From the IMG/VR virus record IMGVR_UViG_3300028837_001890, positions 1 to 57,735 of that record: a DNA stretch of 57,735 nt; one strand, given 5' to 3'. This stretch comes from a virus (Duplodnaviria > Caudoviricetes). Shown piece after piece: positions 34,456 to 35,371 of this stretch. Each line of letters opens with the position of its first letter. Position 1 is the stretch's first letter. The position numbers and the translations under genes are program-made. The notes under the pieces were generated by a model that saw nothing but the letters and a program-made list of their open reading frames with translations, was not told the DNA's origin and did not search any database.

Positions 34456-34520
34456 ACTATGGTTTACTGTACAGCACTTCACATAACTCTTCTGCGCAAT
34501 GCTAAGCAAAACTGCACTAG
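34456..34520 (-). ncRNA. pentamer-repeat guide-like RNA 3
   Basis: 11 x WGY-NN then tail ACCATAGT. Confidence 0.75.
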
Positions 34521-34540
34521 ATTTAATTAAAAATATCTTT

Positions 34541-34603
34541 ACTGTGGTTTGCTACGCTAAACTTGGCGTTGCTTTGCATCGCTTCGCTACGCTAGGCAGA
34601 GCA
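34541..34603 (-). ncRNA. pentamer-repeat guide-like RNA 2
   Basis: 11 x WGY-NN then tail ACCACAGT. Confidence 0.75.
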
Positions 34604-34619
34604 ATGTTAAATTTTAAAT

Positions 34620-35207
34620 TTAGTTTAATACTTTTTCTCTTGTTACTTTAAATGTTCCATAATAACCATTGCATGTAGGTCTAAAAGCCATTAGCCCTGC
34701 TATCTTACCAGAAATGTCTAATAATTTTCTAATAAGAGATTGTTCAAAAACATTTTCATCTAAATCAATATTAAATTCTAATGCCCAGATATCAATTCGT
34801 GGTCTGTGTCTAATAATTGCCCCTTTAGTTGCTGGTACTACAACTCTTCGTGAATCAACTTCATAATGTTTAGTTTTTTTCCACTTATCTTTGAGTGATT
34901 TCTTAGATAAAAGAAGTATTTCGTCATTTGATAATAACGTAAGACCTAGAGATAATCTAGTTCTATCTTTTGTTGCTAATTGTTTTTTATTATCATATTT
35001 AATTTCTTGTCCTCCTTGTCCTAAACACCTCCAAAGAGCTTCTTTTGGCACATAAAGATATCCGTCTTTATCTTTATATGCGAAACCCTCAGCTTCTTCT
35101 TGGGGAGTGAGGTTTTTATTTCTTTTATTATTTGATCCTAGAGTTTTTATATTAAATTTACACATCATTAACGGGGCTGTACCTTCTATCATATAATTTA
35201 TACGCAT
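34620..35207 (-). CDS. stand-alone Cas7/RAMP-like protein (195 aa)
   Basis: start at 35207 (AGGA RBS); INYMIEGTAPLMM, LYVPKEALWRCL, RHRPRIDIWALEF and C-terminal Gly-rich GKIAGLMAFRPTCNGYYGTFKV follow the RAMP layout. Confidence 0.7.
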   Translation of the reverse strand: MRINYMIEGTAPLMMCKFNIKTLGSNNKRNKNLTPQEEAEGFAYKDKDGYLYVPKEALWRCLGQGGQEIKYDNKKQLATKDRTRLSLGLTLLSNDEILLLSKKSLKDKWKKTKHYEVDSRRVVVPATKGAIIRHRPRIDIWALEFNIDLDENVFEQSLIRKLLDISGKIAGLMAFRPTCNGYYGTFKVTREKVLN

Positions 35208-35231
35208 TTTTTGATATCCTGTATTAATAAA

Positions 35232-35314
35232 ACTGTGGTTTGCTTTGCTAAACTGGGCTACACACTGCAGCGCTGTGCTTGGTGCGACTTCGCTACACTC
35301 AGCACGGCTTAGCA
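35232..35314 (-). ncRNA. pentamer-repeat guide-like RNA 1
   Basis: 15 x WGY-NN then tail ACCACAGT, between promoter and RBS. Confidence 0.75.
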
Positions 35315-35342
35315 AAAATTTTGATTTATTGAATCGTCGACT

Positions 35343-35371
35343 ATTATATTATAATTAAAGTTATTTGTCAA
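35343..35371 (-). promoter_or_regulatory. sigma70 promoter of the RAMP/pentamer locus
   Basis: TTGACA-17-TATAAT. Confidence 0.88.

Follow-up and report, generated by a model that had tools for sequence, protein, structure and literature searches.

A divergent candidate VIPR locus with an A/U-G-Y repeat scaffold in an environmental phage

VIPR systems (the name stands for Viral Interference Programmable Repeat), introduced in three 2026 preprints (10.64898/2026.04.26.720920; 10.64898/2026.04.26.720927; 10.64898/2026.10.15.759431), are built around Vipr, a ~20-kDa ancestral RAMP that is mostly phage-borne and is flanked by vrRNAs consisting of 9–16 Y-NN-GG units and a 3′ tail (10.64898/2026.04.26.720920). 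According to main-text passages of the VIPR preprints, Vipr polymerizes on the vrRNA and sequesters GGY, the NN dinucleotides pair with double-stranded DNA while one target base per unit, usually the wobble position of a codon, is skipped, and competing satellites or prophages are transcriptionally silenced. Seven types with varied accessories, some of them nucleases, have been delineated, all described as sharing one tandem repeat recognition code, GGY/NN "or a related consensus," and the Methods of the same preprint list NNNGG, YNNNG, and NNNNG as alternative repeats (10.64898/2026.04.26.720920). The loci are stated to be "typically" composed of two genes, so that a vap gene is not strictly required (10.64898/2026.04.26.720920). 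Literature searches for "vrRNA" or the full name of VIPR gave, among the matches listed, the VIPR preprints and a language-model survey.

The SUSP1 system, a type II VIPR from an Escherichia phage, carries one vrRNA upstream of vipr and three downstream, and these vrRNAs were sequenced as RNAs and co-purified with Vipr (10.64898/2026.04.26.720920). In the SUSP1 structure determined by cryo-EM, the first scaffold base, G1, is read through hydrogen bonds to His17 and Asp177, G2 by Arg138 together with Trp178, and Y3 by a pocket to which Arg179 belongs; silencing is abolished by either D177A or R138A (10.64898/2026.04.26.720927). Within the main texts of the VIPR preprints, His17 and Asp177 are mentioned only where SUSP1 and P. 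fulva are described.

Here we describe a locus on the minus strand of an uncultivated phage in which three arrays of 5-nt units, each W-G-Y followed by two variable bases, flank a gene for a 195-aa protein (Table 1). The window, that is, the whole stretch of DNA analyzed, spans 57,735 nt. The locus is very likely a VIPR system, and is filed as such because its parts and their order are those of VIPR, it is carried by a phage, and no CRISPR array, nor any cas gene among the 41 window proteins scanned, accompanies it. It is a new, divergent member of a published kind, and the kind itself is not new.

Table 1. Features of the candidate VIPR locus and the adjoining tRNA genes, in order of presumed transcription
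Feature	Coordinates	Strand	Description
Sigma-70-type promoter TTGACA-17-TATAAT	35371..35343	minus	12/12 consensus; ~28 nt upstream of array 1
vrRNA array 1	35314..35232	minus	17 in-register pentamer units, 15/17 W-G-Y (phase-aware scan)
vipr ORF, 195 aa, intact	35207..34620	minus	ATG at 35207, AGGA 9 nt upstream
vrRNA array 2	34603..34541	minus	13 units, 11/13 W-G-Y; begins 18 nt past vipr stop
vrRNA array 3	34518..34456	minus	13 units, 11/13 W-G-Y; 22 nt past array 2
Four tRNA genes Ile-aat, Lys-ttt, Asn-gtt, Thr-tgt	34441..34108	minus	ARAGORN and Rfam

The phage itself is 57.7 kb in length and myovirus-like, encoding terminase, portal, major head, tail sheath, and baseplate proteins, and its record is rated complete in IMG/VR. 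Its TerL is at most 34% identical to that of any isolate phage. An OmpA-like protein points only to Gram-negative phyla, and this gene suggests a Gram-negative host. The sequence occurs in four runs, all of DNA and all from one marine-sediment study, with no RNA run among them.

The 195-aa protein has no match in Pfam and falls in PHROG 4652 (E 1.1e-11), a family annotated as "unknown function." An exhaustive phmmer search retrieved 1318 representative homologues at E ≤1e-3, and a profile was constructed from 84 near-full-length sequences hand-picked from the best 150 of these 1318. Compared with solved structures, the 84-homologue profile matched SUSP1 Vipr (36pp_D) at E 1.3e-22, aligning positions 1–183 with 1–191, and the next structure matches had E values of at least 0.3. 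The single sequence yields a weak, collinear match to 36pp_D (E 0.35), in which the motifs RP and FRP align with RP and WRP; Arg135 is placed opposite SUSP1 R138, and F175-R176-P177 opposite W178-R179-P180. With the 84-homologue alignment as input, AlphaFold2 produced a model of very high confidence (pLDDT 96.3, pTM 0.90). The protein is predicted to be a single-domain RAMP with a thumb hairpin (strands 116–123 and 130–138) and a G-loop (residues 167–184, GKIAGLMAFRPTCNGYYG). Searched against the PDB, Foldseek ranked Csm3 and type VII Cas7 on top (E 2e-5), and VIA-align gave Csm3/Cas7 a Z of 11.9 with an rmsd of ~4 Å over 160–170 residues, its best 50 entries being type III, type VII, or Cas7-11 complexes without exception (50/50). 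Because of the profile match taken together with the AlphaFold2, Foldseek, and VIA-align results, the protein is classed, by sequence profile and predicted structure, as a member of the Vipr family with a RAMP/Cas7 fold. An earlier note on this DNA had proposed such a fold, naming its absence as a refutation, and had pointed to a resemblance to VIPR; the fold is what the model returned, and VIPR proves to be a real system whose SUSP1 representative is the profile's best structural match.

The protein nevertheless stands apart within its family, as a long branch with at most 42% identity to any relative in IMG/VR. A single-protein search of IMG/VR and a tblastn search of Vipr against 50,697 phage records gave no match. 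The closest cluster mates, P0153 and P0154, are the same protein with other start calls, and no variant arrays come from them.

Csm3 polymerizes on its guide RNA at a fixed period, with the thumb flipping bases out. Like Csm3 (PDB 6xn3_F and 6ifl_F), the window protein is predicted to have an RRM-core RAMP fold, a thumb, and a glycine-rich loop (Z 11.9 over 164–169 residues), but the two share only 12–16% identity, and no PADLOC Cas model is matched at E 1e-3. The repeat period is 5 nt in VIPR as opposed to 6 in Csm3, and the guide bases of VIPR are interleaved in the repeats instead of residing in a spacer. In contrast to type III CRISPR-Cas loci, the window holds no Cas10, Cas6, Cas1, or CRISPR array. 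It contains no spaced CRISPR-like repeats, and none of the 41 window proteins scanned with PADLOC matched a cas family, which agrees with the earlier report of neither CRISPR repeats nor other cas genes. The locus would work like a Cas7 filament and is not a member of CRISPR-Cas: the fold is common to both, but the array and the partner genes are absent.

To delineate the arrays, all 57,735 bases were scanned on both strands, with phase taken into account, for W-G-Y recurring at 5-nt intervals. The scan found exactly three runs, all on the minus strand, with the same numbers of WGY-NN pentamers (15, 11, and 11) that the earlier note had counted there. Such runs are far beyond chance: 200 dinucleotide shuffles of the window gave a mean of 0.075 runs of at least six units, the longest being six, and when each array was shuffled separately the observed in-phase count was reached in 0 of 2000 shuffles per array. 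Pooled over 43 units, position 1 is A in 30, T in 11, C in two, and G in none; position 2 is G in 39/43 and position 3 is C or T in 42/43, while all four bases occur at positions 4 and 5, where the G+C content is 41%. The arrays are GC-rich, as had been claimed, at 0.54, 0.52, and 0.41 against 0.283 for the window. TRF did not report them, since two of every five bases vary.

Toward their 3′ ends, the arrays converge in sequence. In array 1, NN is variable in ~12–13 units and is followed by the conserved end ...AGT-tt AGC-aa AGC-aa ACC-ac AGT; the last five units of array 2 are almost the same as those of array 1, and array 3 terminates in AGT-aa ACC-at AGT. Some 23 nt at the 3′ end are thus common to arrays 1 and 2, and 10 nt to all three, each of which ends in AA-ACC-A(C/T)-AGT, the shared terminus that the earlier note had written as AA-ACCAYAGT. 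These conserved ends are unpaired in MFE folds computed with a tool that does not predict pseudoknots, and the same folds reveal among the three arrays no common or conserved 3′ structure comparable to the pseudoknot tail of SUSP1. Array 3 is enclosed by a 9-bp perfect inverted repeat (TTAAATCTA at 34526..34518 and TAGATTTAA at 34450..34442), the arms of which are paired in the MFE fold.

Periodic arrays are not peculiar to this phage. When IMG/VR was scanned with a pattern, 216 matches came up; 201 of them were confirmed as relatives, and 80 loci were kept; removal of identical proteins left 56 distinct ones, the window's included. Counting as positive any locus with at least one xGY-NN array of at least seven units, on the vipr strand and outside coding sequence, arrays lie beside the gene in 55 of the 56, the exception being L027, which has none, and a stricter array definition still finds arrays on the vipr strand in 50/56. 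Opposite-strand scores at 17 loci are the same arrays read in reverse. A check of whether homologues are flanked by such arrays had been proposed beforehand, and it comes out in favor of the pairing of gene and array.

These data also bear on whether the arrays are RNA genes at all. Array 1 could conceivably be an N-terminal coding extension of a 231-aa protein, with the others being repeats that act at the level of DNA, for example as protein-binding sites: a 231-aa frame that begins with a TTG at 35315 spans array 1, and one gene call in the public record (P0153, 231 aa) includes the array as a 36-aa N-terminal extension. But coding constraint would not allow a 5-nt period, each of the 11 close homologues that were aligned starts at or near MRINYM, an AGGA precedes the internal ATG at the spacing listed in Table 1, the same arrays flank vipr in nearly all distinct relatives, and those of SUSP1 are sequenced RNAs that co-purify with Vipr (10.64898/2026.04.26.720920). 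We regard this explanation as scarcely credible, and treat the arrays as putative vrRNA genes.

The arrangement of these genes suggests how they would be expressed. Both the perfect promoter and the 195-aa reading frame noticed earlier hold up on inspection (Table 1), the former as the best of 19 promoter-like sites in 33700–35800 and the site from which the VIPR unit is presumably transcribed, the latter as an intact frame. No vap gene is recognizable, and the stretch from vipr to the downstream arrays is free of genes. ORFs on either side lack informative matches in Pfam, PHROG, or PADLOC, as well as counterparts in the 80 related loci. Downstream, the tRNA cluster runs in the same orientation as the arrays. 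A terminator scan identified no terminator-like site between array 3 and the tRNA genes, its single site lying inside tRNA-Lys, and the tRNA genes and the VIPR arrays may possibly reside on one transcript. None of the 80 related loci has a tRNA within 1.5 kb, so the adjacency is particular to this phage, and tRNA-coupled processing as a family-wide rule was dropped for the same reason. In this phage, given that tRNA-Ile begins 15 nt past array 3, processing at the 5′ end of the tRNA may free the last vrRNA.

Set against SUSP1, the window locus exhibits both likeness and difference. The two have in common a homologous, phage-encoded ~20-kDa Vipr RAMP, one array upstream of vipr with the rest downstream, 5-nt units that combine a constant triplet with a hypervariable NN (11–17 units here versus the published 9–16), and the lack of a CRISPR array, cas genes, and a self-target. 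They differ in that the first scaffold base is A/U instead of G, in that Cys16 and Ala174 take the places of His17 and Asp177, in that the window has no recognizable vap between vipr and the downstream arrays, and in that the AA-ACC-AY-AGT end was found where SUSP1 has a 40–60-nt pseudoknot tail; the window also has a tRNA cluster fused downstream, and direct sequence similarity is weak. The canonical GGY scaffold with G1 reading of the His17/Asp177 type, as in type II (SUSP1 and P. fulva), was not found here, with G at the first position in 0/43 units, and the locus, judged from its sequence, is not type II-like. The published YNNNG repeats are closer: the window units, written as Y-NN-W-G, form a subset of YNNNG, but the position that is free in that pattern is here limited to A and T in 41 of 43 units, a comparison drawn at the level of the repeat pattern and not of each type's consensus. 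The earlier suggestion that a WGY scaffold would be a distinct variant therefore stands as far as the scaffold is concerned, which is G-less at position 1, and falls where it implied a separate kind, since the units lie within YNNNG (10.64898/2026.04.26.720920). A non-G position 1 is common among the IMG/VR relatives.

The change in the RNA coincides with a change in the protein. Both profile and pairwise alignments place Cys16 and Ala174 at the SUSP1 His17 and Asp177 positions, while the predicted readers of G2 and Y3, namely, Arg135, Phe175, and Arg176, are retained. This division recurs among relatives. In the 152 nearest proteins, Arg occupies the R138 and the R179 position in 150 each, and the W178 position is aromatic in 143, whereas the G1 reader pair is variable, with Asn+Asp in 48, His+Asp in 36, Cys+Ala in three, and many other combinations. 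Across the 56 loci, the base at position 1 tracks the G1 reader pair. Among His+Asp loci it is at least 82% G in 20/22 (92% G when all 1118 units are pooled), with L077 (67% G of nine units) and L044 (7% of 15) as the exceptions; among the 31 Asn+Asp loci it is mixed (pooled over 1661 units, G 31% and T 44%), and only L010 and L030 exceed 80% G; at the two Cys loci it is A in 68% and 93% and G in 0% and 2%. The association has little phylogenetic depth: all His+Asp loci belong to one clade, only three changes of either trait are seen on the tree, and a paired sign test cannot reach significance. In main-text passages of the VIPR preprints, a link between the G1 readers and the scaffold base was not found.

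The second Cys-type locus, L001, is the only other one among the 56 and resides on an AT-rich viral contig that encodes a 39% identical Vipr. It has three arrays with A at position 1 in 41/44 units, and these close, as in the window, with terminal units that carry a-c or a-t as their NN, after which come AGT/AGC and an A/T-rich stretch. It differs from the window in that Ser, not Ala, occupies the Asp177 position, in that two of its arrays lie upstream and the third downstream, with a hairpin terminator after it, and in that it has no tRNAs.

Loss of the G1 readers could alternatively signify decay, in which case the locus would be a non-functional VIPR remnant whose His/Asp pair was lost and whose arrays are drifting to A/T. 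It is indeed the case that D177A kills the SUSP1 system (10.64898/2026.04.26.720927), that the window has a GC content of just 28%, and that the fraction of G at position 1 correlates with locus GC (r 0.59), the two Cys loci being the most AT-rich. Drift, however, is not what the units look like. Position 1 is G or C in merely 2/43 units where ~12 would be expected under drift at 28% GC (binomial ~1e-4), and the neighboring NN positions keep 41% G+C, which argues against simple AT drift; G2 is retained in 39/43 units and Y3 in 42/43, and the 5-nt phase persists across all 43. Against decay stand also the intact reading frame, the very confident fold, the perfect consensus promoter, and a second Cys-type locus with its own strong preference for A. 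We judge a remnant to be a very unlikely account of these features. The W-G-Y scaffold with its His17→Cys16 and Asp177→Ala174 replacements is best explained, going by the alignments and unit counts, as a re-specified G1 pocket and not as decay. With a natural Ala at the Asp177 position, function would need a compensating change in the RNA.

One may go a step further and propose that this lineage re-coded its scaffold from G-G-Y to A/U-G-Y through swaps of both G1 readers (His→Cys and Asp→Ala/Ser), giving a protein–RNA pair orthogonal to the canonical VIPRs. We offer this tentatively, and find it somewhat more doubtful than probable. A context in which such insulation would count has been described: satellites and phages hijack Vipr with solo GGY vrRNAs (10.64898/2026.10.15.759431). 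The word "orthogonal" is absent from that preprint, and scaffold insulation was not found in passages of it.

The search for targets covered the phage itself and public sequence collections. No site in the phage beats permuted guides under skips of 0, 1, or 2 nt, and the 3-nt-skip maxima are the arrays themselves; own-genome targets are likewise absent in the published VIPR systems (10.64898/2026.04.26.720920). Full guides expressed as NN-x patterns had zero exact matches in IMG/VR, and searches of IMG/VR, the metagenome collection, and the GTDB genomes with exact seeds, which allow no mismatches, gave no targets beyond chance. These seeds took in the last units of arrays 1 and 2, which are conserved and may belong to a tail, so that the seeds were too strict. 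Seeds of eight units had 2, 71, and 23 matches in IMG/VR for guides 1 to 3, with extensions at the level of chance; for guide 2, these reached 16, 17, and 18 of 20 in 31, 25, and 15 matches, and none was higher.

Several individual matches were considered and set aside. A 10-unit seed of guide 1 had one match in the metagenome collection (L081), on a contig of ~65% GC whose flanks agree with 2/6 upstream guide bases, and was attributed to chance. The best extension for guide 3, 18/20 in three identical contig stretches (L166, L171, and L176), was rejected as a target because one such match among 23 seeds is expected by chance; in it, an ORF on the opposite strand, whose translation is VASYLAIKLA, has its wobble position at the skipped base. 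A 9-unit seed had six matches in GTDB genomes, the best of which (23/26, in a Clostridia MAG) was not significant.

The empty target search is one reason to consider that the locus, while belonging to the VIPR family, follows a recognition rule or acts on a substrate unlike that of SUSP1, be it through a different skip length, targets made of RNA, or a function apart from the silencing of competitors. Besides the lack of any target under a 1-nt skip, such a departure could be expected of a Vipr on so long a branch and so faintly similar to SUSP1 when compared alone, could accompany the changes in the scaffold pocket and the lack of a tail and of vap, and would have precedent in the varied accessories, some of them nucleases, of the seven types (10.64898/2026.04.26.720920). 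Weighing against it, the thumb Arg and the F-R-P of the G-loop, which set the repeat geometry, are conserved, all seven types share one recognition code (10.64898/2026.04.26.720920), and the target search was shallow, resting on exact seeds that included possible conserved 3′-end units. A different rule is thus unlikely in our estimate, although less so than decay or a coding origin of the arrays, and the published mode of action is the one on which the following proposal is modeled.

Most likely, the consensus promoter gives rise to one leftward transcript comprising vrRNA1, vipr, vrRNA2, and vrRNA3, which probably runs on into the four tRNAs. By homology with the SUSP1 complex, Vipr protomers would polymerize along each vrRNA, one per 5-nt unit, sequestering the constant triplet and presenting the two variable bases. 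The assumption in the earlier note that one subunit binds each triplet does not carry over from SUSP1, where two adjacent protomers jointly hold one GGY (10.64898/2026.04.26.720927). By the same analogy, the NN bases would pair with double-stranded DNA with every third target base skipped, and the predicted outcome is that a gene is silenced in a competitor, whether phage, satellite, or prophage.

VIPR is a find only months old, a minimal form of RNA-guided DNA silencing proposed to be older than CRISPR, to which this locus adds a divergent, environmental, and AT-rich member. Repeat callers built on YNNGG or GG[C/T]NN would miss it, because no unit has GG. The locus represents a natural specificity variant in which the G1 readers are replaced and the RNA is changed at exactly that base, and it thereby provides a direct and inexpensive way to test scaffold reading by Vipr and the existence of orthogonal Vipr/vrRNA pairs. 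If the re-coding proposal is true, a re-coded scaffold would shield the phage Vipr from solo-vrRNA decoys and would constitute a natural second channel for multiplexed VIPR tools.

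The IMG/VR relatives of Vipr, the 195-aa Cas7-like protein encoded in the window, include five loci (L028, L033, L035, L012, and L002) whose proteins carry an Asn+Asp pair at the positions of the SUSP1 Vipr scaffold-G1 readers, His17 and Asp177, and these Viprs form a well-supported clade. Its loci carry up to 13 arrays within 3.5 kb of DNA per locus, with units that are mostly T-G-T, and every array ends in ...-aa GGx-aa xGT, with (A)CGGGTTTTT or AAGGGTTTTT after it. The vrRNA arrays of the window, built from W-G-Y plus NN pentamers, differ from those of this clade in both scaffold and tail.

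One of the window's arrays, vrRNA array 3, is flanked on both sides by a perfect 9-bp inverted repeat (TTAAATCTA and TAGATTTAA on the minus strand; 34442-34450 and 34518-34526), which adjoins the tRNA-Ile gene. The repeat may constitute a processing stem, or may have arisen by chance given the AT-rich DNA. As for targets, the only candidate that displays the published wobble signature, in which the skipped target base falls on codon position 3, is the guide 3 seed match shared by three IMG/VR contig stretches (L166, L171, and L176, positions about 95-125); this match is not significant against 23 seed hits.

The wider phage genome (Table) harbors seven tRNA genes in the window (Asp, Cys, Thr, Asn, Lys, Ile, and Met), and ARAGORN assigns to the Ile tRNA an AAT anticodon, which is unusual in bacteria. 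Two of the three DNA methyltransferases are cytosine-MTase-like, and all three presumably serve an anti-restriction role. The phage-borne outer-membrane beta-barrel gene suggests a Gram-negative host.

Table. Coordinates of accessory phage genes and tRNA genes
Feature	Position (strand)	Remark
DNA methyltransferase genes	2378-2938, 8524-9450 (minus), 28550-29641 (plus)	n = 3
GroES-like co-chaperonin	29744-30028	phage-borne
HslV-like peptidase	30858-31397	phage-borne
OmpA-like outer-membrane beta-barrel	38688-39284 (minus)	phage-borne
tRNA genes	34365-34441 (minus) and 5134-5209, 16796-16867, 34108-34357, 37309-37385	

Repeats also occur elsewhere in the phage. The region at 20492-20777 contains three to five TGTGGATAA-like words similar to DnaA boxes and, after them, a perfect 16-nt repeat (6.4 copies) and a 32-nt repeat (three copies); it resembles an origin or a regulatory region. 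A gene-poor stretch at 27229-27509 contains iteron-like direct repeats, 20 nt and 49 nt long. At 10930-11517, about 24 tandem copies of a 21-nt repeat fall within an ORF (10875-11528, minus) that weakly matches a minor head protein in PHROG, and thus encode a 7-residue protein repeat.

A public gene call for vipr (P0153) extends the gene to a TTG at 35315 (34620-35315, minus) and adds to the protein 36 N-terminal residues translated from vrRNA array 1. In VIPR loci, such a call is an annotation trap.
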